Source: a virus (Duplodnaviria > Heunggongvirae > Uroviricota > Caudoviricetes). Taken from it: DNA of 64,000 bases. Location: positions 46,677 to 110,676 of the IMG/VR virus record IMGVR_UViG_3300024348_000013; one strand, written 5' to 3'. This document shows, piece after piece, positions 42,531 to 63,545 of this stretch; positions within the stretch are counted from its first letter, which is position 1; each line of letters opens with the position of its first letter. The notes beneath the pieces were generated by a model, which was not told the DNA's origin, searched no databases, and saw only the letters and a list, made by a program, of their open reading frames with translations. The position numbers were made by a program, and so were the translations under genes.

Positions 42531-42620
42531 CTTTTTAGCAATTATTTTTGAAAAAAGTCGTAACTCATTGATACTCAGTTAGTTAGGTATGTAACGATTT
42601 TATTACATATAACCCGTTGA

Positions 42621-42923
42621 TTACCAAGTAGTGTCAATGTAGGTAGGGGACCCGTCCCATAACTTACCATTAAGATACCATTCGCCCTTCTTTTGATTGA
42701 TTCTGACGAACTGAAAACCATTCAGTCGTTCTTTTGTAGTATTACTATCCCAGCCGGCGTTACTAATCCACGTACGTCCGTCCTCATATCGGGCAGCAAT
42801 CTTATTACCAAATAGTTTTAGGTAGTATATAGTACCCTCACGTACTACTTCGGTATTAGATTTCTTAAAAGGGATTCCTAATTCGAATGCGCTGATTGCT
42901 TCGGTTGTTATTTTTCTACTCAT
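42621..42923 (-). CDS. hypothetical protein (100 aa)
   Basis: Follows the GIY-YIG gene. Confidence 0.45.
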   Translation of the reverse strand: MSRKITTEAISAFELGIPFKKSNTEVVREGTIYYLKLFGNKIAARYEDGRTWISNAGWDSNTTKERLNGFQFVRINQKKGEWYLNGKLWDGSPTYIDTTW

Positions 42924-42924
42924 G

Positions 42925-43239
42925 TTAGTGTGTTGAATTTAGTTTATAATTGTATTTCTTTAGATATTCCGTTTCGATTTGATGTGCCAGAGCTTTACCC
43001 CTTACGACCTCCACAACTGAAACTTCATATACATCTGGTCCGTATTTTCGCATATCATTGTAAAGGGACCAATCTTTGTTTTCTTTACGTGCTCTACTGC
43101 AGTGCTTTTGAAATCTTAGCTTAGCAGAATAGTTGAAAGCTCTCCCAACTGCGGCAGTAATACCGATATACGATTTATTGTTTGTAGTATTAAGTATTTC
43201 ATATATAATGTGATTTCTATCTGAGCGTTTTTTTCTCAT
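42925..43239 (-). CDS. GIY-YIG nuclease (free-standing homing-endonuclease-like, 104 aa)
   Basis: HIIYEILNTTNNKSYIGITAA (GIY...YIG), conserved R and H, and E in IETEYLKKYN. Confidence 0.7.
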   Translation of the reverse strand: MRKKRSDRNHIIYEILNTTNNKSYIGITAAVGRAFNYSAKLRFQKHCSRARKENKDWSLYNDMRKYGPDVYEVSVVEVVRGKALAHQIETEYLKKYNYKLNSTH

Positions 43240-43275
43240 TGTTTATAATTTATTTATAGTCAGAATAACCTATAT

Positions 43276-43311
43276 GCTGGAGGCCGTTTCATCGCCCGTA
43301 TACCCTCCAGC
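43276..43311. other. perfect 8-bp GC-rich hairpin (GCTGGAGG/CCTCCAGC, 20-nt loop)
   Basis: Inverted repeat in the spacer between the GIY-YIG gene and the upstream gene. Confidence 0.5.
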
Positions 43312-43471
43312 TTCTCTTCATGCGATTTTAATATAGGTTATTTAGATGATTTAAAATAATGTTCGAAAATTGTTTTGATAAATACATACCCAACTAATGA
43401 TATAGCTGATATGATAATGGCTTCGCCAATTGTTATATACTGACCCATAGTAGTTTAATTTAATTTAGTGA

Positions 43472-43831
43472 TTAGAATTTTTGTAATAAGATGTTAATCG
43501 CCTTAGTACTGAAACCGAAAACGTTTTTCAACTCACGTTTCAAAGCCGGCTCATTTACATACTTACCATTCTTAACTGAATAATCAGAAAATATACGAGA
43601 TAAGGTAATTGATTCACGACGAAACATTCCGATATACTGAACGATTTCTTTGTACTGCTTTTTAGTACGATACGGTAGGTAGTGATTACGTCCTAAAAAG
43701 TCCGTAAAGGTAACCATCGGCGTACCGGCTTTATATACTCGCGGTTTGTTAGCCGGAATATTAATGATATCAGCCGTAGCTTCTAAACTAACTGATGAAT
43801 AACGTGGGTTAAATTCTTTTGTGTAACTCAT
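43472..43831 (-). CDS. hypothetical protein (119 aa)
   Basis: Preceded by a conserved promoter and a 0.6 kb repeat-rich leader. Confidence 0.5.
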   Translation of the reverse strand: MSYTKEFNPRYSSVSLEATADIINIPANKPRVYKAGTPMVTFTDFLGRNHYLPYRTKKQYKEIVQYIGMFRRESITLSRIFSDYSVKNGKYVNEPALKRELKNVFGFSTKAINILLQKF

Positions 43832-43873
43832 AATGATTTTTTTTAATGTGATATATTCTCTTTACTTACATAG

Positions 43874-43905
43874 TAAAGATACGCAATTCTGCTGACATAT
43901 ACAAG
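43874..43905 (-). promoter_or_regulatory. Bacteroidetes-type promoter (CTTG-N20-TATCTTTA)
   Basis: Minus strand: CTTGTATATGTCAGCAGAATTGCGTATCTTTAC. Confidence 0.55.
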
Positions 43906-43940
43906 TCTTTTAGCAATTATTTTTAAAAGTTTTTTGCTGA

Positions 43941-44300
43941 GTATCAACCAGTTACGAATTCTTTTTTTTATCACATATAACCCACTCTGAATCAGATAGT
44001 TATAACTCACTGGAAATCAACCAGTTACGTCAGCGGACTTAACATAATATCCGTTATATAGATTTTTCCACGTAACCCATTGAGGACCAATACGTTAGCG
44101 ACTTAACATAATATATTATATAAGACATTCCTAACTCATTGATTATCATAGCTTAATGTATACTTTAAATAAAAATGCGTAACGTGTTGATACTCAATAA
44201 GTTATATATGTTTGATTAAAGTTATAATCCACTTCAACTTAAACGGGCTAACGTGTTGATTTATAACCGGTTATGGTTATCATATTGACTATCAACGAGT
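43941..44300. repeat. cluster of short direct/inverted repeats (ATCAACCAGTTACG x2, CGACTTAACATAATAT x2, TAACGTGTTGAT x2)
   Basis: Read directly in the non-coding 43.9-44.4 kb stretch. Confidence 0.6.
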
Positions 44301-44394
44301 TAGCAGTTTTGAATTAAAGTAAAGATTTTTCAGGAAAGTTTTTGTCTGTGCGGCGCACCGTCTTATTCAGTTTGCTCCTATCCACGATTTGGAT

Positions 44395-44475
44395 TCGATT
44401 CACGCGTGATTCACACCGTTACATATTGTTACATATTTTCCTACGGTGATTCATATTGTTACATATGTGAACACG
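44395..44475. repeat. iteron array, locus 2 (TTGTTACATAT x3 plus GATTCA variants)
   Basis: ccgttacatattgttacatatttt...gattcatattgttacatatgtgaacacgcc, followed by gggaggaagcaaa; homologous to locus 1 including the flanks. Confidence 0.6.
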
Positions 44476-44773
44476 CCTGTTTACAATTGTAATTTTTTTT
44501 TTCGGGAGGAAGCAAATGGGTGGGATACAACTTAATTCATTGATACACTTATATAGTGTTTTATGTTTATTGTAGTGTGTAAGTATGTTAATGTTTATAT
44601 TGACATGGTTATAACTTTTACCACTCTTTAACACATTTTACCACTTATACCCACCTGATATAAAGGATTTACTTATTTTGATACATAATGCGTTTACACA
44701 CACTCATGCCATTTACACCCGTTTGTATTGTGTATTCCGATATACGATATGAAGTGTTTTTCTTTTACTTAGT

Positions 44774-44935
44774 TGTAAAGAAAAGATACCAACCAGTCAA
44801 TAGAAACTTATAACCAAAGTAAAGTATCACTCCCATAAAGGTGCACATTACTACCTTAGCAAGTACGATACCGATTTTACCGGCTAATTCCATATAACGT
44901 TTCATAATCCATTTTTTAATATTCATAAAGATTTC
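44774..44935 (-). CDS. small membrane peptide (about 53 aa)
   Basis: MNIKKWIMKRYMELAGKIGIVLAKVVMCTFMGVILYFGYKFLL..; AAGGAAA upstream. Below the ORF-track size cutoff. Confidence 0.35.
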
Positions 44936-45161
44936 CTTTGTTTAATTATATATAACGATTTTGATTTTTATCACTATCGATTTCTATTCCTTCGATATAT
45001 CAGTATTAGTGTATATCCCAGAGTCACCATTAGTACTATCATACGTTAGAATTTACCCCATTGTGATTTATCCCTATTCTCTTCAGCTATCTTAACCCCT
45101 AACCATAACTCCCTAAGTATCTTAACTAATTCACCTAGTGGATTGTTTCCTATTTTCTTAT

Positions 45162-45335
45162 TCATACTATCTTATTTATTAATTCCCTTAAAAGTACATC
45201 CCAGTCCTTATAACTATCCCATACTATCCTTTCGTATTCTTTTAGTACGGATTCTCTTTGCTCATTCGTTAGGGTTATATTCAGTTCCACTTCTATTTCC
45301 TTAATATCTTCTGGGTTTACATTATCTTTATACAT
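45162..45335 (-). CDS. small hypothetical protein (57 aa)
   Basis: MYKDNVNPEDIKEIEVELNITLTNEQRESVLKEYERIVWDSYKDWDVLLRELINKIV; ATGA overlap with a following 39-aa ORF. Confidence 0.35.
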   Translation of the reverse strand: MYKDNVNPEDIKEIEVELNITLTNEQRESVLKEYERIVWDSYKDWDVLLRELINKIV

Positions 45336-45545
45336 ACTGGCATACTTATTATTCCTTGCTGAATTATTTTTATCTTATTTGTCAGAATCGGTTTTCGTTT
45401 CGATTACTAAGTATGGGTATCGTTCATCCCCTTTTGTTATAAAACGAAGTTCACCCGATTCGACTAATTCATTTGCTATTTCGATTCCCTTCGTCTCCGC
45501 AATCAATTGTATTGTTTCACCTAAATATATCTGCTTCATTCTCTA

Positions 45546-45887
45546 TTATTTATTACTATGTTTACGAATCCATTTATACATAAAATCTATATCACGTTTA
45601 TCACTACTATCCACACTTGCCGACTCTTCAAGCTTAGGGGACGCACTATCAATAAAATTTTCCTTAATCGACTCACCCCCAGCCCCCGCCCCTTTCAGTT
45701 CGTTTAGGTATTCGTTAAACATATCCTCATTTGAATAGTGAAAGTATTTTTCTGCATTTTCTGGCGTATCATTTTCATGCATCCACTTTATAAAATTTGC
45801 CGTTTCATTACTCTTATCTATACTTTGAATATAGGTAGTTCCATCCTCTAAGGGAAACCTTTTATTTAATTGCTCTTCTCTGTTCAT
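45546..45887 (-). CDS. hypothetical protein (113 aa)
   Basis: Minus ORF preferred over the antisense 45379..45738. Confidence 0.45.
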   Translation of the reverse strand: MNREEQLNKRFPLEDGTTYIQSIDKSNETANFIKWMHENDTPENAEKYFHYSNEDMFNEYLNELKGAGAGGESIKENFIDSASPKLEESASVDSSDKRDIDFMYKWIRKHSNK

Positions 45888-46089
45888 AGTTATTTTTATA
45901 AAACCAATATAAGTGCATTAAGATTACCGATGTGTTAATTACTAATATAGGATAATCCATTTTCAATAACGCATATACTATCCATACTACTGATGCTATC
46001 GAATTTATTAATCTTAGCTTCCACATATCCTTTACAGCAAATGATACCAATGTACCTGCTGTTGCTATCCATCCAATTGCTTCAATCAT
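45862..46089 (-). CDS. small membrane protein
   Basis: Two transmembrane helices. Confidence 0.4.
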   Translation of the reverse strand: MIEAIGWIATAGTLVSFAVKDMWKLRLINSIASVVWIVYALLKMDYPILVINTSVILMHLYWFYKNNYEQRRAIK

Positions 46090-46228
46090 ATTATTTATTT
46101 CGATTCTTATATTCTTTTACTATTTCTATTATTGCATATAGTGTCAATCCTGTTGATACTATTACTGCTATTGTTGATATTATTTTCATATTACAATATA
46201 CGTTTTTTATTTCAATTTACCAAATTAT

Positions 46229-46489
46229 TTAATCAATCATTTCACTTGGCATTGTCCACATGTGAATTGGTGTCCTATCGCCCATATATGCTCTTAGGAT
46301 ATTAAATTCAACCCATTCAGCAGCGGTTTCCCAATCCCACTTATTATCACGCATTAAAAGGATTTCCATTTGGTGAATATCATATACAGGTATACCCTCT
46401 TCTGTTATACCAATGATTGCTTCATCTAATCCATCCCAAAGTATTGCCTGCGGGTCGATATCTAATATCCGTTTACGTTTATTTTCCAT
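46229..46489 (-). CDS. hypothetical protein (86 aa)
   Basis: ORF. Confidence 0.4.
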   Translation of the reverse strand: MENKRKRILDIDPQAILWDGLDEAIIGITEEGIPVYDIHQMEILLMRDNKWDWETAAEWVEFNILRAYMGDRTPIHMWTMPSEMID

Positions 46490-46491
46490 AA

Positions 46492-46776
46492 TTAATTTAT
46501 TCCTATTCTACATTCGATACCATCTTCGCTTTCAAATACCCATTCGGTATAATTAAATCCACCTATATCGCCCTTAATTTCTTTTACAAATCTAAATCTT
46601 CTAAATCCGTTTGTATTATAATTGTAAATAAAGAATTCACCTTTCATTGTAGGGAATGCTTCAGGATGAAAACTACCATCTGGCATATATGCTACTAAAT
46701 TATACGCATCAGCGTAAAATGTATTAATATCTTTATTCCATTTAAATTGTTGTATATCGTATTCTATATTTTTCAT
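46492..46776 (-). CDS. hypothetical protein (94 aa)
   Basis: ORF. Confidence 0.4.
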   Translation of the reverse strand: MKNIEYDIQQFKWNKDINTFYADAYNLVAYMPDGSFHPEAFPTMKGEFFIYNYNTNGFRRFRFVKEIKGDIGGFNYTEWVFESEDGIECRIGIN

Positions 46777-46777
46777 A

Positions 46778-47347
46778 CTATCTTTTTAAATCCCTTTTAA
46801 TATCCTCTTTTACTTTTTCCAAATATACTAACCTTTCATTTTGTGAAACAAATGGTACACTCCAAAATTGGCGAGTCTTTGTTTTAAACCAACCGAATAC
46901 AAATGAATAAACACCCATCACTAATCTTAGCTTAACCGAATTGAAATACATTGTTAATACCGGTAATGCAGGTGCTCCATGTGTAAGGTATGTTCTAACT
47001 TTTTTATCACTCAATAAAGGTGTCGGATATCCATACACTTTTGTAACGGGTGTAAACTTATATGCAAACCCCGGCGTAAATATTTGGTCAAAGAATGCCT
47101 CCATTATCGGCGTACATCTAAACCACCAAACAGGGGATATAATATAAATCCTATCTGCCCATGTTATTAACTCTTTATACTTTTTGATTTTATCTTTTGT
47201 AAATTCAAATGTTATATTTTCTTTGTATAAATCTATTATACACGTTTCCTCTTTATTTTGTTTTAAAGTTGCTTCAATAGTTTTCATTATACCATTGTAG
47301 CAGAAACTCTTTTTATCAGGGTGTCCTATTATAATTAAGTTTTTCAT
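46778..47347 (-). CDS. flavodoxin-like NAD(P)H-dependent oxidoreductase (NQO/azoreductase fold)
   Basis: MKNLIIIGHPDKKSF...ADRIYIISPVWWFRCTPIMEAFFDQIF is the Flavodoxin_2 pattern. Confidence 0.6.
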   Translation of the reverse strand: MKNLIIIGHPDKKSFCYNGIMKTIEATLKQNKEETCIIDLYKENITFEFTKDKIKKYKELITWADRIYIISPVWWFRCTPIMEAFFDQIFTPGFAYKFTPVTKVYGYPTPLLSDKKVRTYLTHGAPALPVLTMYFNSVKLRLVMGVYSFVFGWFKTKTRQFWSVPFVSQNERLVYLEKVKEDIKRDLKR

Positions 47348-47352
47348 ATCAT

Positions 47353-47835
47353 TTAGTTTATTAATGGCTTATTACTCATTATCAATTGCTCCATCATTGC
47401 TATCAATTTCATTGGCTCACTTATCCATTCCTTTTGAATTAATACGCTATCATTTTGTGGATGTGTTAATGCTAAAGTAAAATAATTATTACCAACACTT
47501 GTATCTGGATTTCTATGTAAATCAAATACATAATGTTGCTTACCTACTATTCCTTTGAATTCATATACATTCCCAAATACTCCAATTTCTTCAGCTGAAA
47601 ATAATTGTATCATTGATTTATTTTTAACTGATAATGTTAGTATTTTATTAAGATTTTTAATTGTGATTCGATTATCTTGTATATCCAAAATATCTAATAA
47701 ACTTTTTGGTGGCATATTTGTTTTATCATTTTTAAGTTGCTCTATTAATACACATTGTAAATGGTCTGTATCTACTAAATATTCACTATCAATCCATTTA
47801 GTATCTTTGCCGCAATATTGACAAGTCCAATTCAT
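47353..47835 (-). CDS. hypothetical protein (160 aa)
   Basis: ORF, ATGA-coupled. Confidence 0.45.
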   Translation of the reverse strand: MNWTCQYCGKDTKWIDSEYLVDTDHLQCVLIEQLKNDKTNMPPKSLLDILDIQDNRITIKNLNKILTLSVKNKSMIQLFSAEEIGVFGNVYEFKGIVGKQHYVFDLHRNPDTSVGNNYFTLALTHPQNDSVLIQKEWISEPMKLIAMMEQLIMSNKPLIN

Positions 47836-48047
47836 TACTTTTTTTTCTTTTTTCGTTTGCTAGGTATTGTTAATGTTATACCTATCCCACTTTCACTAGC
47901 CCAATTTAAATCATACGATACATATCCATACAATTCAATCTTACCTTTCTTTATTAAACTCTTTTGATAATAAACCATTTGAGATGTAGTATCAGTTACT
48001 TGCGCTGATACTGATACTGGAAATAATAAAACTAATAACCATTTCAT
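47835..48047 (-). CDS. small secreted protein
   Basis: Signal peptide MKWLLVLLFPVSVSAQ. Confidence 0.4.
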   Translation of the reverse strand: MKWLLVLLFPVSVSAQVTDTTSQMVYYQKSLIKKGKIELYGYVSYDLNWASESGIGITLTIPSKRKKKKK

Positions 48048-48049
48048 TT

Positions 48050-48394
48050 TTAAAAAGGATTTGATGAAGTTAATCTCATACCTAATACCTTATCAATCAT
48101 TTCCTCAAATGTTTGTCTGAAAATTGAAATAGATGCCATACAAACTTTATCTATTGTATGTATTGTAGAACGATTTTCGTCATCCCTCAAAATAATACTA
48201 AAATCACCGTCATTTTTCCATTTATGGGCAGGTGTTAATACATTCAATTCCCACTTTGGTTTTTGTGGTAAGTTTAAATTCAATATAGTTGCTTCATACA
48301 TCGTTTCATCTGCATTATGTATTGGATTAACAATTGTATAACCTTTGTATGTATATCCACTTATTTTTTCCCAACCTTTAATTTTCATATTCAA
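48050..48394 (-). CDS. hypothetical protein (114 aa)
   Basis: ORF. Confidence 0.45.
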   Translation of the reverse strand: MNMKIKGWEKISGYTYKGYTIVNPIHNADETMYEATILNLNLPQKPKWELNVLTPAHKWKNDGDFSIILRDDENRSTIHTIDKVCMASISIFRQTFEEMIDKVLGMRLTSSNPF

Positions 48395-48396
48395 AA

Positions 48397-48588
48397 TTAT
48401 TTATGGTCATCGAAAAAAACATGCTTTTTACGAGCCAGCTCTTCTTCGATTATACGTTTCTTATTAGTTAATTGATTGATTTTAAATGCACGTCCCATTT
48501 TACCAATCCAATTTTGCGCTTTAAACTCAGTCCACTTTTTTAGTTCTGCGTTTGTTTGTTTTAATTCCTTTTTTAATGCCATTGTCAT
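48397..48588 (-). CDS. small hypothetical protein
   Basis: ORF; competing overlap with 48527..48772. Confidence 0.35.
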   Translation of the reverse strand: MTMALKKELKQTNAELKKWTEFKAQNWIGKMGRAFKINQLTNKKRIIEEELARKKHVFFDDHK

Positions 48589-48753
48589 ATCCTTGTTGTA
48601 TTGTGAAATAATAATTCCATTTTAACCAGCTAATTGCTATTCCAAATGCCGGTGTTAATACTCCTGATTCTAAAAAATAATATTTACTATACCATGCTTT
48701 TAAAAATGGTAATATGTTTATTACCTGTTTGTTTTTGTTCAAAGTGTTATTTT

Positions 48754-48966
48754 CTATAAACCATTTTCCCATAATCCTGAATTTTGTTTTGTTTTTAAAA
48801 TTGTTTCGTCTTGTGCTTTTACTTTAGCTCCATACATCATACGAACAATCATACCCAATTCCTCATCGGTTGTATTATCATCCATTATAATTTCTTTACG
48901 GATGCTTAGAGTTTCTTTTGCTTCCTCAGCCCATCCTATTATTTGTTTAGCGAATCCTTTATCCAT
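48754..48966 (-). CDS. small hypothetical protein
   Basis: ORF. Confidence 0.35.
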   Translation of the reverse strand: MDKGFAKQIIGWAEEAKETLSIRKEIIMDDNTTDEELGMIVRMMYGAKVKAQDETILKTKQNSGLWENGL

Positions 48967-48973
48967 AATTTAT

Positions 48974-49513
48974 TTATATATCGGTTGGTAATATTGTTGT
49001 TTTATGCCCTTCATCTCCAAAGATACGAAAACTTTTTACAATTCCCAAATCTGTTATTGTCACTGCTTCTATTTCAATACCCCACTTAACTACATATTCT
49101 TTAACTTCATTTGTTATTTGTGAATTTACATCCACTAATCCAGGCCAAGTTGTCATTTCAACTACGTCCCTAATTATACCTTGCGTTGTATCTATTAACA
49201 CATCATTAGCGTGCATTACACTTAATAAATAAGTTTGTATATTACTTACTCTATATCTGATAATTGCTTTTAATACAATACTTTCCTCGTCCAATGTTGT
49301 CAAAGTTTGTGATGGTAAATTAACCGATTGTGTAATAACAGGACATTCAATTACCGAATCAAAAAATGGTATCTTAAAATGAATACCACCGGATAAGTTT
49401 TTAATCCATTTTCCGTATCGTAATTGTACTGCCGCATTCCATTGCTCTATAATAACAAATGGTAACATATCCCTACCAAACCTAACTAATAAATCCACTA
49501 ACTTATCTAACAT
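48974..49513 (-). CDS. SPFH/band-7 domain protein
   Basis: IIEQWNAAVQLRYGKW...GIHFKIPFFDSV...QTLTTLDEESIVLKAIIRYRV..; stomatin/prohibitin-like fold. Confidence 0.6.
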   Translation of the reverse strand: MLDKLVDLLVRFGRDMLPFVIIEQWNAAVQLRYGKWIKNLSGGIHFKIPFFDSVIECPVITQSVNLPSQTLTTLDEESIVLKAIIRYRVSNIQTYLLSVMHANDVLIDTTQGIIRDVVEMTTWPGLVDVNSQITNEVKEYVVKWGIEIEAVTITDLGIVKSFRIFGDEGHKTTILPTDI

Positions 49514-49518
49514 ATCTT

Positions 49519-50034
49519 TTATTTTTTATCTATTAATCTACCGTATCCTCTAATCATTTGTTTGTATCGTGGTTCTTCTATACTACTAATCTTTACACCT
49601 TCATATCGATTTGCTGCGTGTATAAAATAACTATTACCAATAAAAACTCCCGTATGCCAGCCAGATGGTGATGCTTTACTTCTGAAAAATACCAAATCAC
49701 CTATCATCAAACTATCTTTTTTTAAACGTTGGGTTTGCTCCCATTGTTTATATGCCACCTCACCTAACACTTTATTATAAACATCTTTGTATAAACGTTT
49801 ATTAAATTGTGAACAATCAATTCCTCGTTCACTATTTCCGCCTAATTTATATGGTTTACCTATCCAATATAACATAAACTTATTTAATATCGTATCCGGT
49901 GTTAGAATTTCATCACTTATTGCCGGCAGTTTGAAATCAGTATATGGGTTTTTAGTTTGAGAATAACTTAATATCGGTAGTAATACTACTAATATTAGAA
50001 TAAATCTAAACTTTTTACTATTTAATTGTTTCAC
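49519..50034 (-). CDS. NlpC/P60 (C40) peptidase with signal peptide, probable endolysin
   Basis: YKLGGNSERGIDCSQF (catalytic Cys), GDLVFF, HTGVFIG (His) and FIHA; N-terminal signal sequence. Confidence 0.75.
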   Translation of the reverse strand: MKQLNSKKFRFILILVVLLPILSYSQTKNPYTDFKLPAISDEILTPDTILNKFMLYWIGKPYKLGGNSERGIDCSQFNKRLYKDVYNKVLGEVAYKQWEQTQRLKKDSLMIGDLVFFRSKASPSGWHTGVFIGNSYFIHAANRYEGVKISSIEEPRYKQMIRGYGRLIDKK

Positions 50035-50209
50035 TTAATTACCCCCATACCAGATACATTTACCATTGTATATGCAAATCTAGCTTCCTCTAATCTTTTA
50101 ATAAATTCTTTGTTCTCTAATTTGTGTGCATCCCACAAAGAAGATACTCTTAATTCCCTAGCCCATTGATTGAACCCATTGTCTGTATTACCTATTCTCT
50201 TAGCCATAA

Positions 50210-50506: not shown

Positions 50507-50509
50507 ACT

Positions 50510-50541
50510 CAAATATACGAAAAATATCCGATATTACCAAA
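50510..50541 (-). promoter_or_regulatory. Bacteroidetes-type promoter (TTTG-N20-TATATTTG)
   Basis: Minus strand: TTTGGTAATATCGGATATTTTTCGTATATTTG. Confidence 0.55.
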
Positions 50542-51020: not shown

Positions 51021-51021
51021 A

Positions 51022-56306: not shown

Positions 56307-56629
56307 AGATTATTAAAATTGAAGTTTTTGTTATTTGAATATAATATCTCACCATCTGGGTTTACACTCATATCAAGTGCACCCTGTTCAACTAAATCCA
56401 TTATAGTAGTGCTTATGTTTACTTCCATTGTATCATTACACACCTTTAAAAATTCAGTATCCGTTAGAAACATGTTATCTTCTTGCTCCCACTTTCTTTG
56501 CATTGCAGTTTGAAAATTGCGTTTTAATTCCAATCTTTCAATAAAAACATTTTCTTCAAAAAATCCATGCTCATCCAACGTATCAATTATTTGATTTGAT
56601 ACTTCAACGATTTCATTAAGTATATCCAT
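56303..56629 (-). CDS. hypothetical protein
   Basis: ORF, coupled. Confidence 0.4.
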   Translation of the reverse strand: MDILNEIVEVSNQIIDTLDEHGFFEENVFIERLELKRNFQTAMQRKWEQEDNMFLTDTEFLKVCNDTMEVNISTTIMDLVEQGALDMSVNPDGEILYSNNKNFNFNNL

Positions 56630-56921
56630 TTTGTTTTTTTAATAACTCATCCAATTCCAATTGTTCTTCAATTGTTGGCGTATAAGTTGATTTATAATAT
56701 TCGTCATCGTATTCCATATCCTCTGGAAATATAGAATGTGGTTTATCACGATGTATGTCATCCGAAAATATAACTTTTTTACTATCTTCGGTACTTCTCC
56801 ATTGCCAATATTGTTCGTTCATTTGTTCTTGAGCAAGATATTGTTCGTAGATATAATCTTCATCTCCACTACCGGATACTGCTTGCTGTTGGTCCAAATA
56901 TAGTTCTTTCATTTTACCCAT
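56616..56921 (-). CDS. hypothetical acidic protein
   Basis: ORF downstream of the promoter at 56944-56974. Confidence 0.4.
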   Translation of the reverse strand: MGKMKELYLDQQQAVSGSGDEDYIYEQYLAQEQMNEQYWQWRSTEDSKKVIFSDDIHRDKPHSIFPEDMEYDDEYYKSTYTPTIEEQLELDELLKKQNGYT

Positions 56922-56943
56922 AATAATAGTTATTTAATTTATA

Positions 56944-56974
56944 CAAATATACAATAATTTTTTCTTATTTCAAA
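56944..56974 (-). promoter_or_regulatory. Bacteroidetes-type promoter (TTTG-N19-TATATTTG)
   Basis: Minus strand: TTTGAAATAAGAAAAAATTATTGTATATTTG. Confidence 0.5.
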
Positions 56975-57480
56975 ATAATTCTTTCAGTTTTTATAACCTT
57001 ACCAATTCTGGCAACAATAGTCATCGTATCACCCCTCATATTCCACATAGGTGCTATGACTGTATTGATACTACCATCTGCTGAATTATAACATACTCCA
57101 TTTATTGTAGGTACTTGTGCTGCTTTAAGATTCACTACCTTAATACTATCAACTATCTGCCATCCCAATCCTCTCCATGTCCTTCTATATATAGTTCCTA
57201 TTGTCTCTCCTTGCTTCAATACCCAATAGTGTGAACTTTCCCATTCTACCTTCTCACGTGGTTCATTTGGTATGTTTCCGTTCACCCTGATTGAACCCGA
57301 TATTGTATGAATGTTTTGTGTTTCAGTAGAATACATAGTAAAATAAGAATACCCATTTGCATCTTTCGGCAAACGGGTATCTATATTCAATTCGATATTC
57401 TTATTAGGACTGAACCAATCATCTTTACTGCACCCTACCATTAAAAACGATAATGTACAAATTAATGTTAGTATTCTCAT
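56965..57480 (-). CDS. lipoprotein
   Basis: MRILTLICTLSFLMVGCSKDD is a lipobox-type signal. Confidence 0.5.
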   Translation of the reverse strand: MRILTLICTLSFLMVGCSKDDWFSPNKNIELNIDTRLPKDANGYSYFTMYSTETQNIHTISGSIRVNGNIPNEPREKVEWESSHYWVLKQGETIGTIYRRTWRGLGWQIVDSIKVVNLKAAQVPTINGVCYNSADGSINTVIAPMWNMRGDTMTIVARIGKVIKTERIILK

Positions 57481-57481
57481 T

Positions 57482-57757
57482 TTATTTCACTTCGATTACT
57501 TTGGTAAAATTAAAACTTCTCCATCCCTGATTCTCAATATCCCATACAGTAATATTGTCAGATTCAACCGGCTGTCCATTCTCATCCAACTTTACAACCT
57601 TATCGGTTTTAGGATGAAACTCTTCCGGAATATCACTTGTTTTCTTTGTACAAACGATGAACCTCTCAGTTCCATCTGCTTTTGTGAAACGTAATTGTAC
57701 GATTTCAGTTTGTAACTTTTCTACTAATTCTTGCTTTGTAATTTGTAACGTGCTCAT
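57482..57757 (-). CDS. hypothetical protein
   Basis: ORF. Confidence 0.4.
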   Translation of the reverse strand: MSTLQITKQELVEKLQTEIVQLRFTKADGTERFIVCTKKTSDIPEEFHPKTDKVVKLDENGQPVESDNITVWDIENQGWRSFNFTKVIEVK

Positions 57758-57780
57758 ATCTATTTTGTTTTTAGGTTTTA

Positions 57781-58125
57781 TTAATAATCATATTCGTTTA
57801 AGAAACAATTTTGTTTACACATTGTCAATAAGAAAATGTTGTTTCTACAATCGGTATCTGCTCTACTAAGTGCCAGATATAAGTCGTTAGCAATTACGGC
57901 TTCAACGAAACCACCACCTGCGTAAGAACTCTTATCACGGGTACACATAATCGAAACCATAATATCCAAAATATGTTCACTTACATTTGTGAATCCATAC
58001 TCAATAGCGAATTTAGTAGCTCGCTCTCTACATTTTTCTCTAACATCCATAACTTTATTTTCTATATTATTTTGCTTTTCCCACATTATTTCATTTGGGT
58101 CTATATCATTGTTGTAAATTGCCAT
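57781..58125 (-). CDS. hypothetical protein
   Basis: ORF. Confidence 0.4.
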   Translation of the reverse strand: MAIYNNDIDPNEIMWEKQNNIENKVMDVREKCRERATKFAIEYGFTNVSEHILDIMVSIMCTRDKSSYAGGGFVEAVIANDLYLALSRADTDCRNNIFLLTMCKQNCFLNEYDY

Positions 58126-58143
58126 ATACTTTGTTTTTTATTT

Positions 58144-58551
58144 TTAATATTCATCTTCGTAATCCGTTTCATCGTAGAAATAACCCTGATAATCACAACT
58201 ATCAGGTCCAGCCATTTCATATACCCAACCATCAGCCATTTCAATTAAGTTAGGATAGTAAACACCTTCGGTGCCTACGCCACTACCATTATCTTTGAAT
58301 GCTGTACTAATACCAAATCCCCTAGCTTCATCGGTATATGTATCACCTGTTGAATCGGATGTAAATCCATTCATTTCAGCAAGTAACTCATAGTAATCTT
58401 TACCACCAAATACACCATACCCATCGTATTGTGTTTCAGTCCATACATTGCCTTTGTTATCAATCATTTGTACTCTAAACGTTTTAGTATTAGAGTAAGT
58501 GTTAGCGATACTTCTATCTGTATCTTGTGTTTTCCAACTGAAAAATCCCAT
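58144..58551 (-). CDS. hypothetical protein
   Basis: ORF, Gly/Tyr/Asp-rich. Confidence 0.4.
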   Translation of the reverse strand: MGFFSWKTQDTDRSIANTYSNTKTFRVQMIDNKGNVWTETQYDGYGVFGGKDYYELLAEMNGFTSDSTGDTYTDEARGFGISTAFKDNGSGVGTEGVYYPNLIEMADGWVYEMAGPDSCDYQGYFYDETDYEDEY

Positions 58552-58569
58552 AGTTTTAAATTTTAAATT

Positions 58570-58779
58570 TTAATAATCCGATTCTAAATATTCACCCGCG
58601 TTTAAATAATCATAGTATTTATCCCTACGATATGGATAATTGTTTTCATAACAATCATCACAATAATATCCTGTTGGAATGCCATATGAATCACTTCTTA
58701 ATTCAACATATGCTTTTTCCGTTTCCGTTGTATTAGAACAATCTCTACCCTTACAACAAATTGTATTTTCGTTATACAT
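58570..58779 (-). CDS. small Cys-rich protein
   Basis: CCKGRDC...YYCDDCY. Confidence 0.35.
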   Translation of the reverse strand: MYNENTICCKGRDCSNTTETEKAYVELRSDSYGIPTGYYCDDCYENNYPYRRDKYYDYLNAGEYLESDY

Positions 58780-59107
58780 TTTTTATTTCTTTTATATGTT
58801 TACAATCTTTACCTCTACCAAATCCATGCGCCGGACAACTACAATTCCAAATCCCACCATCGTTTACAACTTTATAGGTATTTCCTTTACTACCTTTAAC
58901 TTTGTACTCTTTTTTCACTTCGACTTTTTGTTCCCAACTCTTTGGCATTCCGTATGTAATCTTATCCCACATACTTTCTAATTCTGCCCAGCTATAACTT
59001 CTATCTACCTTAATCCAACCCTCACCGGTGCCTGTTGTAACAATATACCATTGTTTACTCGTAGGCCCCTGAAATGATATCGGAGGTAAAAACGATTTGA
59101 TTCTCAT
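58772..59107 (-). CDS. SWIM-type zinc-finger protein
   Basis: CSCPAHGFGRGKDCKHI. Confidence 0.4.
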   Translation of the reverse strand: MRIKSFLPPISFQGPTSKQWYIVTTGTGEGWIKVDRSYSWAELESMWDKITYGMPKSWEQKVEVKKEYKVKGSKGNTYKVVNDGGIWNCSCPAHGFGRGKDCKHIKEIKNV

Positions 59108-59125
59108 AAATTTTTGTTTAATTGT

Positions 59126-59485
59126 TTACAATCCCTGCTCTCTACGCAAGTCGTAATCTTCTTTTTCAATCTCCGAATATTCAACCACTTTTAAATAAGG
59201 GGCGAACTTCGTTTCATAGTAACCTCTAAGGTTAGCCATATCAATCAATGAATCGATGAATGACTTACGAACATAAGTCATATCGGATGAGCCAAATCCC
59301 TGGTCAGAATCCCAGTCAGAATAATCTTCGGCTACATCATTAAGAGCTTCATACACCGCATCGGCGTAAGTGATAACTCTTTTTGAATATTTCCCTTCAA
59401 CAGGGAAAGTGTTTTTGATTACATCAAATCCTTCGATTAACGAAGCTGATGCTAATACTGAATTAAGGTTAAATGGTAGTGACAT
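59126..59485 (-). CDS. hypothetical protein
   Basis: ORF with a weaker promoter-like box at 59530-59560. Confidence 0.45.
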   Translation of the reverse strand: MSLPFNLNSVLASASLIEGFDVIKNTFPVEGKYSKRVITYADAVYEALNDVAEDYSDWDSDQGFGSSDMTYVRKSFIDSLIDMANLRGYYETKFAPYLKVVEYSEIEKEDYDLRREQGL

Positions 59486-59572
59486 AGTGTGTAGTTTTAA
59501 AGTTTAAGTTTTATCGTTTTATTACATAGTAAATATACGCAAAATAACTGAGAAATCCAAGAGAAATCGTAA

Positions 59573-59773
59573 TTATTTTCGTTTATAAAATAGTAATTCT
59601 AATACCAAAAGAGAATAGAATATAGGTACATTCAACATGCAATTTTTCATTAATGATAATTGCCATAAGAAACTATGCCTTTCATCACTACCTTCTCTGG
59701 CCATTTTGTTATCAACCGATACCGCTATCGGAAATGATAATACCAGCCACAAAGTTAATATAGTTTGTATCAT
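59573..59773 (-). CDS. small membrane protein
   Basis: Two transmembrane helices. Confidence 0.35.
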   Translation of the reverse strand: MIQTILTLWLVLSFPIAVSVDNKMAREGSDERHSFLWQLSLMKNCMLNVPIFYSLLVLELLFYKRK

Positions 59774-59776
59774 AAT

Positions 59777-60403
59777 TTATTTAGTATTACTTCTAATCCA
59801 TTTGATAAAATCATTTTCAACAACCACCCAATTTGATGGATTAGCTAATCTAACTTCATAATTACCATTAGACATTTTAGATAGGTAACGACGAGTAGGT
59901 CGATTCTTATATGGTATAGTCAAACTTTTCAATATATGTGAGAAACTATTTGAACCGAATTCCTTTCTATAAAAATTCTGCATTTCGGTATATGTAGCAT
60001 CTCCTTGTAATTGTACAAAGTCTAAAATAGATTGTGTAACACCTTTGGGTTTATACTCCGATGTGAAAGGATTAGTGATAGGAAAGCTTGTAGTCATATG
60101 TGAAGCTTCATACCTTTGTTCATCTTGCTGTAACGTAGAAAGAAAATCCTCATCGGCTTCTTCGTTACTTACATAGTGAGGAAATGAATCTTCCGATAAA
60201 CGATTTTCCAACCATTCTTCTTTTTCGGATAATTCATCTTCTTTGTATTCATCTGCTTTTTCGTTAGTAAATTTTCTATTCAATTCCTCACAAATCTTAT
60301 CCAATAAAGAAGCGTTTAATTCTTTATCACATAACATACCTTTAGTGGCGGTAGTACCCAACGAATAAATGAGCTCGTTTAACTCTTTAATAGTGAAATT
60401 CAT
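59777..60403 (-). CDS. hypothetical protein (208 aa)
   Basis: Downstream of a conserved promoter. Confidence 0.5.
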   Translation of the reverse strand: MNFTIKELNELIYSLGTTATKGMLCDKELNASLLDKICEELNRKFTNEKADEYKEDELSEKEEWLENRLSEDSFPHYVSNEEADEDFLSTLQQDEQRYEASHMTTSFPITNPFTSEYKPKGVTQSILDFVQLQGDATYTEMQNFYRKEFGSNSFSHILKSLTIPYKNRPTRRYLSKMSNGNYEVRLANPSNWVVVENDFIKWIRSNTK

Positions 60404-60448
60404 ATTAGTTTAAATTTTAAGTTTTAAAGTTTATCTTTTTTTACTATG

Positions 60449-60480
60449 TAAATATACGCAATTTTCTCCATATTGCCAAA
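60449..60480 (-). promoter_or_regulatory. Bacteroidetes-type promoter (TTTG-N20-TATATTTA)
   Basis: Minus strand: TTTGGCAATATGGAGAAAATTGCGTATATTTACA. Confidence 0.6.
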
Positions 60481-60600
60481 TATTTCATCAGTTATTTTTG
60501 AGATTTTTATGTTATTTATACCCTATTTAGGGGGTCAGAACCCCTCAGGGAACCCCAAATTTCGATTCAAATACCCCAATAAGGTCAGTAATCCACCCGA

Positions 60601-60670
60601 CATATTATAGCGGTTTATATACATAACTCATTGAAACCCAATAAGTTATAACTCATTGATAATCAACGGG
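60601..60670. repeat. direct repeats ATAACTCATTGA x2 and GGTT(T)ATA(TA)CATAACT x2
   Basis: Read directly; same family as the 42549 and 44138 motifs. Confidence 0.5.
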
Positions 60671-61009
60671 TTATACATAACTAGCTTTACCATGCTCTTT
60701 GAGTAAATATTTCAATTGACCTACCATATTATCTTTATCAGCTATCCAATCGGCGGTAACACATACATCGGTTCTTTGTGAATCGAATATAAAAAAGTAA
60801 GCCGTTTCACGAGGCTGAGTAGATGAATATTGTGGTATGCCGATTCGTTCTAACATAATATCACATTTATCTTTTTTAACACCATCAACCCACTTTTCTA
60901 AATTTATTATGTATGTATCGTTGTGCACCCCTTCGTAGATATACTTAACTGTCCAATCATCGACCAAATCCTTATGATTTAATTTGTGATAGTTTTCTAT
61001 TGTTAGCAT
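60671..61009 (-). CDS. hypothetical protein
   Basis: ORF. Confidence 0.45.
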   Translation of the reverse strand: MLTIENYHKLNHKDLVDDWTVKYIYEGVHNDTYIINLEKWVDGVKKDKCDIMLERIGIPQYSSTQPRETAYFFIFDSQRTDVCVTADWIADKDNMVGQLKYLLKEHGKASYV

Positions 61010-61012
61010 GTT

Positions 61013-61210
61013 TTATCTTTTAAATTCAATTTTAGTTAATAGCATCATCGGAACGATTACCCACGCTAATAACATTGATGGGAAAATCTTAGCAATAACT
61101 TCCATTAAAGTAAAATCTTCTTTATCTTCAAATCTAGATGGGTTTTTGATTAACCAATATACTCCATAGATTGTTGTTAATATCCAATACCCAATTAATA
61201 TATTTATCAT
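61013..61210 (-). CDS. small membrane protein
   Basis: Two transmembrane helices. Confidence 0.4.
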   Translation of the reverse strand: MINILIGYWILTTIYGVYWLIKNPSRFEDKEDFTLMEVIAKIFPSMLLAWVIVPMMLLTKIEFKR

Positions 61211-61221
61211 AGTTTAAGTTT

Positions 61222-61383
61222 TAAAGTTCTTCAATAATTCCTAATATCTCAGCTACTATAAAGAAAGAACCAGCTGGAATTAATAACCCGTTACATAATG
61301 CGATACCTGCTACAATTCGTAGTATTGATTTAACGATACTAATTCGAAAGTGCCAATTTGTTTTTGATTCTTTTACTTGCATA
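61222..61383 (-). CDS. small membrane peptide (54 aa)
   Basis: MQVKESKTNWHFRISIVKSILRIVAGIALCNGLLIPAGSFFIVAEILGIIEEL; below the track cutoff. Confidence 0.35.
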
Positions 61384-61546
61384 TTATTTTATTTTTTTAT
61401 CGTATTGTTTTGTAATTGTGATTGATTGTAATTCGGTATTACTTTTTGCTATATTCATAACAGTCGAATAACTTAATCCCTTAATTGTAATCTTATCACC
61501 TGATTGCGATACTATTTCAATATCGTGCATTGTTTTATAATTCATA

Positions 61547-61858
61547 TTAATTGTGTTTCATTCCTTTACATACTCCATACCCCTGTCTCTGCGATAACTT
61601 ATATAAACGTTCCGCATCTTCCATTGGCATGATTTGTATTTCATTACCCGTTTTATGATTAGCGATTGCTACACCACCTACTCTTTGTACTGAACTACAA
61701 TTAACACAACTTCTGTAACCATATTTCACTACTCGTAAAACTGGCATATCACCACCACATTTAACACATTGTGTCATTTCTAATTTTACTTTCACTCCTT
61801 TCATATTATTATAATTCAAAGTTATCAAAATTGATTGAATTGCTTTTAAGGATATCAC
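61547..61858 (-). CDS. TraR/DksA-type C4 zinc-finger protein
   Basis: CVKCGGDMP...CVNCSS. Confidence 0.5.
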   Translation of the reverse strand: MISLKAIQSILITLNYNNMKGVKVKLEMTQCVKCGGDMPVLRVVKYGYRSCVNCSSVQRVGGVAIANHKTGNEIQIMPMEDAERLYKLSQRQGYGVCKGMKHN

Positions 61859-62099
61859 GCTCCCTATCGTATTGTTCAGCCTCAGCAGCTTCTAAGGCTT
61901 TGTTGATAGAGTCTACTCTAACCTGTCTACCCCACTTACCCATATTGTTTACGGGCTTAAACTCATTTTTCCAATAGTTTAATTCTTCTTTAAGTTTTTC
62001 TACTTTTTTCATATGTTTATATTTTAGTTTAAATAAATTAATTCCAATCCTTTGGGAAGTCCTACTAATACTTCCATTGCTATGTTTGTACTGAACATA

Positions 62100-62963
62100 T
62101 TATCTATCATTGTTTAATGTGAACAATTTCTTTTTCTTTTTCACTACGGGCGCAACTACATCATACACACTAAACTTACTATCCTTTGGTATAATGAATG
62201 CGTTATTAGCCGTATCGATTTTGTTACGAACAAACTTAAACTTCAATCCCACAATCACACCCTGCTCATCTAAGTATCTCATATCATACGCATCACCATC
62301 AATTACTTTGTAACCCATAAATGATATTGGTAATACCTTACCTTCAAATACCATAGCTACCCTACCTTTGTTTTTATTTAACAACTCCAATGATTGTAAC
62401 ATATTGTGTCCACTAAACGAATAAGTCAAATCGTAGTTAGGATAGAATTGTAATAACCCAAATCTCTTAGCTACCTTTGTATAATCATAGAATTGAACAT
62501 CATCAAATAATTCAAATAATACCATACCATTGTGTTGGAAACGGGTAGGTTCAATATCACTCGTACCATTTAAACGAACTGAAAACCTATAACCTAACTC
62601 ATCAGCTTTAGATTTAGCTTTCTCAATTTCAGTTACCAACCAACTCATAAAGAACTCTCTATGCTCAAAGAACAATTTAGTCTTTTTGATACGAGCTTTG
62701 TTGATAGCGTTCTTTTTAACGTCAATACGATTGTGACCTGATTCAGTCAAACACGCCGTTCTACATTCTTCGGTACTCATAGGACACACATTGTATCCAC
62801 TTAACGATGCCGGAGCAAGATACAAAATGTAAGTCATTTCGTTATACTTTAATCCTTTGGCGATTTTTGATGAAGATGCCACACTTCCTAAATAAGATAA
62901 ACCTGTTATCTTTTTAGCGTTACCCATTGTTGTAAATTTCATTGTAGTAGTTTTATTATTCAT
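62100..62963 (-). CDS. hypothetical protein (287 aa)
   Basis: Long ORF. Confidence 0.5.
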   Translation of the reverse strand: MNNKTTTMKFTTMGNAKKITGLSYLGSVASSSKIAKGLKYNEMTYILYLAPASLSGYNVCPMSTEECRTACLTESGHNRIDVKKNAINKARIKKTKLFFEHREFFMSWLVTEIEKAKSKADELGYRFSVRLNGTSDIEPTRFQHNGMVLFELFDDVQFYDYTKVAKRFGLLQFYPNYDLTYSFSGHNMLQSLELLNKNKGRVAMVFEGKVLPISFMGYKVIDGDAYDMRYLDEQGVIVGLKFKFVRNKIDTANNAFIIPKDSKFSVYDVVAPVVKKKKKLFTLNNDR

Positions 62964-62986
62964 AATAGTAGTTTTTATAGTTTAAA

Positions 62987-63373
62987 TTATTTAATGATAG
63001 TTGAATGTTCACAACTACCCGTCCTCATAGTGAACCAACTCCAATCTTCGTCAGAAACGAATCTATCCCAATTCGTACCTTTCACCATACAACGTTTAAC
63101 CCAATCGAACTTACATACATCGATTTCTTTTAAACATCTACGAACTGATGAATAGTAAGATGATGGATTACATTGTTTAGGATTATCACCTAACATCTTA
63201 ACCATTATACCCGTCCACATAGGAGCTGGGTTTGTGTTCATTTCAAACACTAATAAATCATATACCCTAATAAGGTACATTTTGTTTTGTGAATCATATC
63301 CGATTTTTGAATCGAATAAATCATAATCGAAGTTTACTTTACTCATATATGTATTTTTTGTTATATTACTCAT
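62987..63373 (-). CDS. hypothetical protein (128 aa)
   Basis: Downstream of a conserved promoter. Confidence 0.5.
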   Translation of the reverse strand: MSNITKNTYMSKVNFDYDLFDSKIGYDSQNKMYLIRVYDLLVFEMNTNPAPMWTGIMVKMLGDNPKQCNPSSYYSSVRRCLKEIDVCKFDWVKRCMVKGTNWDRFVSDEDWSWFTMRTGSCEHSTIIK

Positions 63374-63390
63374 TTTCTGCCTTTATTACA

Positions 63391-63422
63391 TAAAGATACA
63401 ACAATATTGGGACATGGCCAAA
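63391..63422 (-). promoter_or_regulatory. Bacteroidetes-type promoter (TTTG-N20-TATCTTTA)
   Basis: Minus strand: TTTGGCCATGTCCCAATATTGTTGTATCTTTATG. Confidence 0.6.
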
Positions 63423-63442
63423 TACTAAGGAAAGAATGTTTA

Positions 63443-63545
63443 TTGATAATCAACCAGTTAGCCAGAGTAGGTTGGGGACACTAGCTAACTGGTTGATACT
63501 CAATAAACTTTTTTTATATTGATTACCAACCAGTTATGAAATATG
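63443..63545. repeat. palindromic operator-like repeat (TCAACCAGTTAGC ... GCTAACTGGTTGA) plus a third half-site
   Basis: aatcaaccagttagc-N22-gctaactggttgatactcaataa ... ttgattaccaaccagttatg. Confidence 0.6.

Follow-up and report, generated by a model that had tools for sequence, protein, structure and literature searches.

Binding sites for host architectural proteins upstream of phage promoters are a known kind of element, and several described systems resemble the one considered here. In Escherichia coli, integration host factor (IHF) binds as an alpha/beta heterodimer to an asymmetric site with the consensus WATCAR-N4-TTR and an A-tract arm, and covers ~35 bp of DNA when fully wrapped; its sites stand ahead of phage and cellular promoters and occur at origins and att sites. 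The RIP and RIB elements of the same species are IHF sites embedded in REP/BIME repeats, which form hairpins in high copy number and whose families are species-specific and associated with a RAYT transposase. In phage SPO1, the phage-encoded homodimeric HU-family protein TF1 acts at specific sites in early transcription control and prefers hydroxymethyluracil DNA. TF1 has been named as HU-like (PMC6606824), and T4-like phages are described as shuffling their small genes via promoter early stem-loop (PeSL) cassettes (PMC2839356, PMC4122927). In streptococci, the MarR-family regulator FabT binds a 17-bp operator, ANTTTGATTATCAAATT, found at few places per genome beside fatty-acid synthesis genes. 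Within the Bacteroidota, Bacteroides has a chromosomal IHF/HU-family host factor, BHFa, that is used by CTnDOT, and sigma-A promoters consist of a TTG at -33 and a -7 box TAnnTTTG spanning -12 to -5 (PMC9723704). Here we describe a 25-bp palindrome dispersed through intergenic spacers of a 64,000-nucleotide stretch (the window) of a Caudoviricetes genome of ~240 kb, IMG/VR record IMGVR_UViG_3300024348_000013, and compare it with these systems.

Written in full, the palindrome is TAAC-N3-TTGAT-W-ATCAA-N3-GTTA. Judged from sequence, there is about an even chance that it is the predicted site of a dimeric cellular DNA-binding protein, distributed across the Bacteroidota and the wider Fibrobacterota-Chlorobiota-Bacteroidota (FCB) group and most probably a homodimer of the IHF/HU family, and that it serves phages as a promoter module. 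We infer the identity of the binder, its encoding by the host, the bending that it would impose and its effect on transcription. No description of the palindrome in Bacteroidota or their phages was found in the searchable literature, where its motif strings occur only in papers on IHF sites and FabT operators, so that whilst the kind of element would be familiar, the palindrome itself appears to be new.

In the window the repeat unit is TAAC-N3-TTGA-N3-TCAA-N3-GTTA, with half-site TAACTYRTTGAT (window consensus TAAC-T-Y-R-TTGA-T), and a copy that agrees at all 16 fixed positions reads TAACTCATTGATAATCAACGGGTTA. Scored by matches at these positions against first-order Markov simulations, eight sites reach at least 14/16 (0.1 expected) and 12 reach at least 13/16 (1.2 expected). 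Every one of the eight is intergenic, and all except one of the 12 fall in four spacers (42.56, 43.93-44.30, 60.62 and 63.44-63.54 kb) of a region in which all genes lie on the minus strand; inclusion of weaker, obviously related copies brings the total to 15. The first 42 kb, occupied by baseplate and other structural or enzymatic genes, holds a single 13/16 match, which is the chance level, and otherwise no palindrome. GC content of the window is ~30%, and a 20-mer taken from the motif is found in three copies when up to 3 mismatches are allowed. An earlier note on this DNA had described a core motif, TCAACCAGTTA(C/G), accompanied by other short repeats. That motif is real (43944-43955, 44017-44028, 63450-63461 (+) and 63485-63496 (-); 0 in 100 shuffles), and the coordinates given for it were correct to within ~6 nt. 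The copy placed at 63531 is CCAACCAGTTA, with one mismatch, within the site at 63512-63536; the inverted 13-bp pair split by 22 nt was correctly described; and the degenerate copies near 42555, 44290 and 60650 are the genuine sites at 42561, 44278 and 60649. Among the accompanying repeats, GACTTAACATAATAT is present twice (44036 and 44100), and AACTCATTGAT (4 copies, 0.08 expected) proves to be the other half of the same palindrome: when the spacers are read directly, TCAACCAGTTA, AACTCATTGAT and TTGATACTCAATAAGTTATA are all fragments of the single 25-bp unit. Both the excess over simulated expectation and positional conservation in relatives (described below) bear out the motif as observed, and the function proposed for it is supported in part.

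The same palindrome is found far beyond this phage. Its exact pattern was recovered from at least 120 stretches of IMG/VR, on contigs of 26-52% GC, and clustering of the open reading frames (ORFs) around the sites separates at least three phage groups, one of small phages that have terminase and HNH genes, one whose members have a family-B DNA polymerase, and one made up of the relatives of the window. No protein family within ~7 kb of the sites is common to the different groups in this clustering. Overall, the identical 25-bp palindrome is carried by at least four unrelated phage lineages. In a small Bacteroidota-type phage (L063), four cassettes each comprise a palindrome pair, ~40 nt, TTTGG and then TCGTATCTTTAT; in a phage of 47% GC (L075), four units each comprise a terminator, two palindromes 48 bp apart and a sigma-70-like promoter. 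Searches of GenBank by BLAST with two variants of the palindrome returned mostly phages of Bacteroidota hosts, including 19 Riemerella matches, 15 records of Prevotella Lak megaphages with 9-13 places each, crAss-like phages, Bacteroides phages BI-TP1 and LoVEphage, and Tenacibaculum phage Larrie. Almost all of the inspected matches in annotated phages lie in unannotated spacers, the Lak records carrying no annotation. Larrie has two 15/16 sites, 55 bp apart, between two genes, and in Riemerella phage RAP44 a weaker copy (12/16) adjoins the integrase gene. In p-crAssphage (L298; Carjivirus communis, BK010471.1, ~95,980-96,090) two direct repeats of ~25 nt, TATACCATACATGGAATAGATTTCG, come after one 15/16 palindrome, and both elements occupy the divergent spacer upstream of RepL, likely an origin or regulatory region. 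Direct repeats were also seen in the 47% GC phage, where three to four copies of CTCCTATTTGCAACT (600-690) stand between a palindrome pair and its promoter as a second candidate binding-site array.

Bacterial chromosomes hold the palindrome as well. Among species-representative genomes there are at least 120 matches to the exact pattern, nearly all in Bacteroidota; the matches listed include Cytophagales, Saprospiraceae, Bacteroidales, Flavobacteriales, Chitinophagales and Sphingobacteriales, together with Fibrobacteraceae, NPL-UPA2 and a few Verrucomicrobiota or Lentisphaerota. Among these listed matches, 92 of the 96 classifiable sites are intergenic, in spacers that are divergent in 24 cases and convergent in 12, and no recurrent neighbouring gene indicative of a regulon or of autoregulation was found at the 120 loci, whose neighbours include gyrA, mnmE, ribonucleotide reductase, integrase and plasmid-type Rep genes. 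Beyond the matches used as seeds, 624 kb of sequence contains 47 further sites against ~0 expected. One Microscillaceae metagenome-assembled genome (MAG; Prado074, JALONJ01, L181-L255) has 75 sites in 150 kb, or ~1 per 2 kb, and some of its copies lie inside longer repeated elements. In an NPL-UPA2 MAG (JAJOKU01, L178-L286) the palindrome stands 2-6 nt from many contig ends, and would therefore appear to be a high-copy repeat that breaks assemblies. As in RIP and RIB, then, there are high-copy extragenic elements that hold a (here candidate) architectural-protein site, and some bacterial copies have extended palindromic flanks (complementarity z = 3.8-5.6, possibly inflated by repeat families); unlike REP families, the core of the palindrome is conserved across a phylum and its phages. 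In Chryseobacterium sp. R2A-55 (L190, 4929-5030) a perfect palindrome lies ~10 nt from the apparent 3' end of a tRNA or tmRNA, on the opposite strand, a position that would fit the boundary of an integrated element.

A palindrome in an intergenic spacer may act as folded RNA or as a binding site on duplex DNA, and several features point to the latter. At the variable triplets (pairs 5-21, 6-20 and 7-19) Watson-Crick complementarity is not above that of column shuffles in 116 distinct sites (window plus relatives), not one of which has a perfect 11-bp stem, and a further set of 212 phage sites, independent of the first, likewise shows no complementarity beyond chance (sets tested: n = 116, 84 and 212). 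Conserved bases combined with freely varying spacers and no covariation are what a symmetric protein-binding site would show, and on the sequence evidence the palindrome is of this two-fold symmetric type rather than a hairpin. Folded singly as RNA, the window sites are weak (-0.6 to -10.9 kcal/mol), with no U-run after any of them; their AT-rich stems thus lack both the G+C-rich hairpin and the U-run of intrinsic terminators. The exception is the pair at 63436 and 63486, which face each other as an inverted repeat with 38-nt arms and could form a stem-loop of -39.8 kcal/mol. Hairpins, terminators and a CRISPR-like array were rejected as explanations on the basis of absent covariation, weak folding, irregular spacing and spacers that are too short. 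Searches for structured RNA (Rfam at the gathering threshold) and tRNA (ARAGORN) gave zero matches in the window.

Position relative to promoters is equally constrained. The window holds two promoter classes that fit the Bacteroidota sigma-A pattern. Class 1 promoters (...TTGCGTATCTTTA) belong to the small-ORF region and have a leader of ~50 nt before the start codon, their -7 boxes (TATCTTTA) starting at 63398, 60456, 59537, 43881, 42506 and 41585. Class 2 promoters (TTGGTAAT...TATATTTG) lie 12-17 nt ahead of start codons, mainly in the structural region (e.g. 3002, 27399, 30374 and 35344). Palindromes accompany the long-leader class 1 alone, at four of its six promoters, and no credible palindrome was found at any of the short-leader promoters of the structural region. 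The proposal that all copies sit upstream of conserved promoters is nearly correct: four of the five or six promoters of this class have sites, the promoter at 59537 has none, and the 60.6-kb pair is some 180-205 nt away rather than adjacent. Typically, the palindromes come after the end of one gene and ahead of the promoter that follows, and a cassette unit of 78 nt that includes the -33 and -7 elements is repeated in four copies with 63-76% identity. Proximal site centres lie 50, 61 and 67 nt upstream of the -7 box at three loci and 180 nt at the 60.6-kb locus, so that at three of the four, as in most of the phage promoters sampled, the nearest copy has its centre ~57-79 bp upstream of the transcription start. 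Across 177 pooled phage loci, -7 boxes accumulate 50-69 and 90-109 nt to one side of the sites and hardly at all to the other. After similar sequences were collapsed into 98 non-redundant phage promoters, the proximal centre was 45-70 nt from the -7 box in about three-quarters, corresponding to ~-57 to -82 from the transcription start, with favoured distances of 45, 50, 56, 61 and 66-67 nt and neighbouring palindromes spaced 25-30 or 48-50 bp apart. Lying upstream of -33 and clear of the promoter itself, the sites are unlikely to act in simple repression through occlusion.

The case for an IHF/HU-type binder lies in the sequence of the half-sites. Each half, read as W-ATCAA-N4-TTA, matches the IHF consensus WATCAANNNNTTR at all nine specified positions, the two halves being mirrored about W: positions 13-18 are W-A-T-C-A-A, with A or T at position 13 in 92% of 126 sites, and T-T-A (77-90%) follows 4 nt later at positions 23-25, mirrored by TAA at 1-3. 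In the IHF-H' complex the DNA has two kinks 9 bp apart with WATCAR between them, one kink falling within the consensus, and TTR in the flank, centred on position 44; this numbering places WATCAA at positions 33-38. The kinks are reportedly at steps 28/29 and 37/38 (Rice et al. 1996), in which case the dyad of the palindrome (W, position 13) corresponds to W33. With the kinks so placed, TTGAT-W-ATCAA would be a two-fold symmetrised IHF site, as expected for a homodimeric protein of the IHF/HU family; the perfect two-fold symmetry of the palindrome itself implies a homodimer. The contexts are also those of classic IHF sites, with copies upstream of strong phage promoters and beside iterons and Rep genes, integrases and a tRNA-like 3' end, as well as dispersed extragenic copies in chromosomes. 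A sequence-preferring homodimeric type II DNA-binding protein has a precedent in TF1, which differs in being phage-encoded; no HU/IHF gene was found in the window, and the palindromes extend to bacterial chromosomes.

It is worth noting however that several points weigh against this interpretation. The match to IHF is a resemblance in sequence, and the exact placement of the dyad on W hangs on the reported kink positions. Because the palindrome is two-fold symmetric, it has none of the asymmetry, with A-tract arm and alpha/beta heterodimer, that marks sites of the E. coli protein, and is better described as predicted to work like a symmetrised IHF site than as a member of that type. It differs further in an additional conserved C/G (in TAAC/GTTA) and in often abutting at 25-30 bp: given the ~35-bp wrap of IHF, two sites only 25 bp apart would leave no room for full wrapping at each. 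The hosts concerned are Bacteroidota and FCB bacteria, for which no IHF-type consensus, symmetric or otherwise, is documented in the searchable literature. The central 11 bp, TTGATTATCAA, are also the core of the FabT operator. Helical phasing of the distance between site and promoter was considered and is not supported, the favoured classes recurring every 5-6 bp with a best period of 11.5-12 rather than 10.5. Bacterial sites, unlike those of phages, keep no fixed distance to -7 boxes, so that any role at promoters may be specific to phages. Flavobacterium phage immuto, which with Microcystis phage Mel-JY01 is among the closest cultured relatives (baseplate wedge protein ~40% identical), shows no palindrome in the first 50 kb scanned. 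Finally, the window covers 64 kb of a ~240-kb genome, and a binder encoded by the phage could lie elsewhere in it.

Such a phage-encoded binder was the substance of the earlier note, which saw in the repeats the operator network of a repressor or activator of early genes. Much of this survives, in that the palindromes are of the protein-binding type, accompany one promoter class and keep a constrained distance from it; what is not supported is the notion of an operator private to the phage and its close relatives, and the sites neither overlap nor abut the promoter core as operators would. Nor did a cognate protein emerge: scanning of 102 window proteins found no recognisable DNA-binding domain (helix-turn-helix (HTH), HU or ribbon-helix-helix), no HU/IHF homologue was found in the window by phmmer or regular expression and only 2 of ~300 fetched loci have one, and the genes flanking the sites include no DNA-binding protein by Pfam or PHROGs. 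One HExxH-type family was present among the scanned proteins, peptide deformylase, which we guess to be the HExxH protein that the note had put forward as a binder. A phage regulator that times early genes, its gene or genes and sites having spread horizontally among Bacteroidota phages and mobile elements, would explain the pairing of palindromes upstream of a single promoter class, the bare promoter at 59537 (as differential regulation predicts) and the absence of the motif from relatives whose anchor protein (see below) is at most 59% identical, and a novel DNA-binding protein could hide among the early-region proteins, most of which have no known fold. We nevertheless consider this quite unlikely, as the same sequence turns up in four or more lineages that are unrelated and have no protein family in common around the sites, does not overlap the -33 or -7 elements, and occupies chromosomal spacers beside gyrA, mnmE and ribonucleotide reductase, at ~1 per 2 kb in the Microscillaceae MAG. 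A protein encoded by this phage alone cannot account for chromosomal sites, and a conserved cellular protein can; the spread over unrelated phages and chromosomes, the lack of a DNA-binding domain in the window and the lack of overlap with promoters together make a host factor the likelier binder. What had been proposed as a phage regulatory circuit is, on this comparison, probably a network of regulatory protein-binding sites upstream of a promoter class that is served by a host factor and shared phylum-wide.

That host factor could be a dimer of another family, either HTH or winged-helix (MarR/FabT-like, Crp-like or specific to Bacteroidota), whose operator the phage copied in order to couple early transcription to host physiology. 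The shared core with the FabT operator would fit, compact dimers would fit the abutting 25-bp arrangement more readily than IHF with its 35-bp wrap, and in 10 of 486 bacterial site-orientations a -7 box lies 10-19 nt past the site centre, as in a promoter-overlapping operator. This explanation is nonetheless unlikely: the 120 bacterial loci listed share no regulon-like neighbour, some genomes have far more copies than is usual for a specific regulator or than the few FabT sites of Firmicutes, the outer TAAC/GTTA of the 25-bp unit fall outside the 17-bp FabT site, and each half-site agrees in register with the whole 13-nt IHF consensus. Alternatively, the palindromes may be the stem-loop or terminator half of a PeSL-like mobile cassette, ending upstream transcripts and providing homology for gene shuffling. 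Here too the window offers repeated units with host-type promoters ahead of small variable genes, in a T4-like or jumbo myovirus, with palindromes placed between a gene end and the next promoter, one strongly folding pair (63436/63486) and, at the one locus compared, a downstream gene that differs between relatives. Set against these likenesses, the variable positions show no compensatory pairing, most single sites lack the stable upstream stem-loop and the U-run, the 47% GC phage places separate canonical terminators ahead of its palindromes, and a structural hairpin would leave base-specific conservation in unrelated phages and across phyla-level host diversity unexplained, so that we rate the idea as very unlikely. 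Least probable is that the eight-site cluster at 43.9-44.3 kb and its neighbouring conserved block form the replication origin of the phage, with palindromes as initiator or accessory sites and the other copies secondary. The cluster does lie in a non-coding region of 930 nt with other repeats and an AT-rich block of ~240 nt, ~95% identical in a relative; the crAssphage site adjoins iterons upstream of RepL, and others stand upstream of plasmid-type Rep genes. Yet a link to promoters at a constrained distance is plain at the three remaining window loci and at most phage loci, no initiator gene was seen beside the cluster and no GC-skew switch is apparent in the window.

Under the host IHF/HU-type interpretation, the phage would place one to eight palindromes, usually paired, between the end of a gene and the host-type sigma-A promoter that follows it. 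Binding of each palindrome by a host dimer, most likely of IHF/HU type, would bend the upstream DNA sharply, and the bend may promote recruitment of RNA polymerase or insulate the promoter from read-through. Class 1 promoters could then fire without any phage protein, driving the small genes of the presumed early region, which is consistent with an early promoter class. The eight-site cluster beside the conserved non-coding block may double as a replication or regulatory hub.

More tentatively, and with confidence somewhat short of even, we suggest that Bacteroidota and FCB bacteria possess an undescribed sequence-specific architectural system, built on a homodimeric IHF-like or other protein and a 25-bp symmetric site in a few to thousands of copies per genome, which unrelated phages (jumbo myoviruses, crAss-like phages, Lak megaphages, and Riemerella and Tenacibaculum phages) have independently adopted for early promoters, origins and att sites. 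How transcription is controlled and the nucleoid organised is poorly understood in Bacteroidota and in their phages, crAss-like phages and the Lak megaphages of the gut among them, and a single 25-bp element that marks early-type promoters in several phage lineages and is found again in host chromosomes offers a handle for finding the binder, with cultured phages that carry the site already to hand in Tenacibaculum phage Larrie, Bacteroides phage BI-TP1 and Riemerella phage RAP44. The palindrome could also aid the annotation of early promoters, and possibly of origins and att sites, in uncultured Bacteroidota phages, serve as a signature that predicts Bacteroidota/FCB hosts, and contribute to the design of stronger or insulated promoters for genetic work in Bacteroidota.

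Table 1. Palindromic sites and associated class 1 promoters in the window (coordinates are positions in the window; scores are matches at the 16 fixed positions).
Feature	Coordinates	Strand	Details
Class 1 promoter	42499..42529	-	TTGGCAATGTGCGAAAAATTGCGTATCTTTA, with -33 TTG and -7 TATCTTTA; 53 nt before ATG of gene 42097-42453
Palindrome site	42561..42585	.	15/16, reads TAACTCATTGATACTCAGTTAGTTA; centre 67 nt upstream of -7 box of promoter 42499-42529
Palindrome site	42610..42634	.	13/16; distal partner, 49 bp from site 42561; overlaps stop codon of gene 42621-42923
Class 1 promoter	43874..43904	-	50 nt before ATG of gene 43472-43831
Cluster of eight palindromes	43930..44302	.	Starts 43930, 43978, 44003, 44073, 44132, 44180 (16/16), 44249, 44278; centres 61-409 nt upstream of -7 box of promoter 43874-43904; within a ~930-nt non-coding region
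Class 1 promoter	59530..59560	-	No palindrome upstream (internal negative case)
Class 1 promoter	60449..60479	-	53 nt before ATG of gene 59777-60403
Two abutting palindromes	60624..60673	.	60624 (15/16) and 60649 (16/16); directly past stop of gene 60671-61009; pair 180 and 205 nt upstream of -7 box of promoter 60449-60479
Class 1 promoter, more diverged	63391..63421	-	25 nt before ATG of gene 62987-63373
Three palindromes	63436..63536	.	63436, 63486 and 63512; centres 50, 100 and 126 nt upstream of -7 box of promoter 63391-63421

Relatives of the window in IMG/VR are contigs of 220-310 kb, compared here by means of an anchor protein, the product of window positions 62100-62963. Where the anchor is at least 75% identical, sites are found 170-450 nt upstream of its gene, save at a few short or truncated loci; where it is at most 59% identical, the motif is absent. 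The gene directly downstream of the 63.4-kb cassette, the one locus examined in this respect, encodes 128 aa in the window and 58 aa in one relative (L008) and is missing from another (L001), differences that can be likened to PeSL-mediated shuffling in T4-like phages. In another relative (L300), in which the homologue of a 119-aa protein is 61% identical, both the 43.9-kb and the 42.5-kb clusters are kept, with their cores conserved and their N3 triplets altered. The stretch with sites 43978, 44003 and 44073 is missing from that relative, and exact 15-nt direct repeats of GACTTAACATAATAT (44036-44050 and 44100-44114) lie either side of site 44073; together these observations suggest that sites have grown in number by local duplication or insertion.

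Beyond the cluster, a non-coding block of ~240 nt (44467-44706, -) is ~95% identical to positions 3225-3465 of the same relative, against just 61% identity in the protein beside it. Within the block are AGTGGTAAAA-type repeats and an AT-rich stretch; folded as RNA it has a z-score of only -1.07, and a search with an exact 24-mer recovers it from no more than two IMG/VR contigs. The block may be an origin or a cis-regulatory element, or may have been exchanged recently. A search of the 42-46 kb stretch against GenBank phages found no similarity at the DNA level. Between the block and the palindrome cluster (44380-44470) lies a second set of short repeats, comprising ATGTAACAATATG in 2-3 copies and GTGAATCAC/GTGATTCAC, which is partly kept in L300.

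The two fetched loci that have an HU/IHF homologue are palindrome-bearing phage contigs (L072, 10996-11526; L171, 5400-5930), where the gene lies 2.7 kb from a site. Its product is IHF-beta-like (E = 5e-14) but atypical, with an insertion and a long acidic tail, and was for that reason left out as a query. In the window itself, a 104-aa GIY-YIG homing-endonuclease-like gene (42925-43239, -) lies between the 42.5- and 43.9-kb cassettes, beside a gene of the Kyano_Gp96 family. The first 39,000 nt of the window encode a UvdE UV-endonuclease, phage endonuclease I, peptide deformylase and Hsp20, together with 2OG-Fe(II) oxygenases, a carbamoyltransferase, a DnaG-like primase and baseplate genes.

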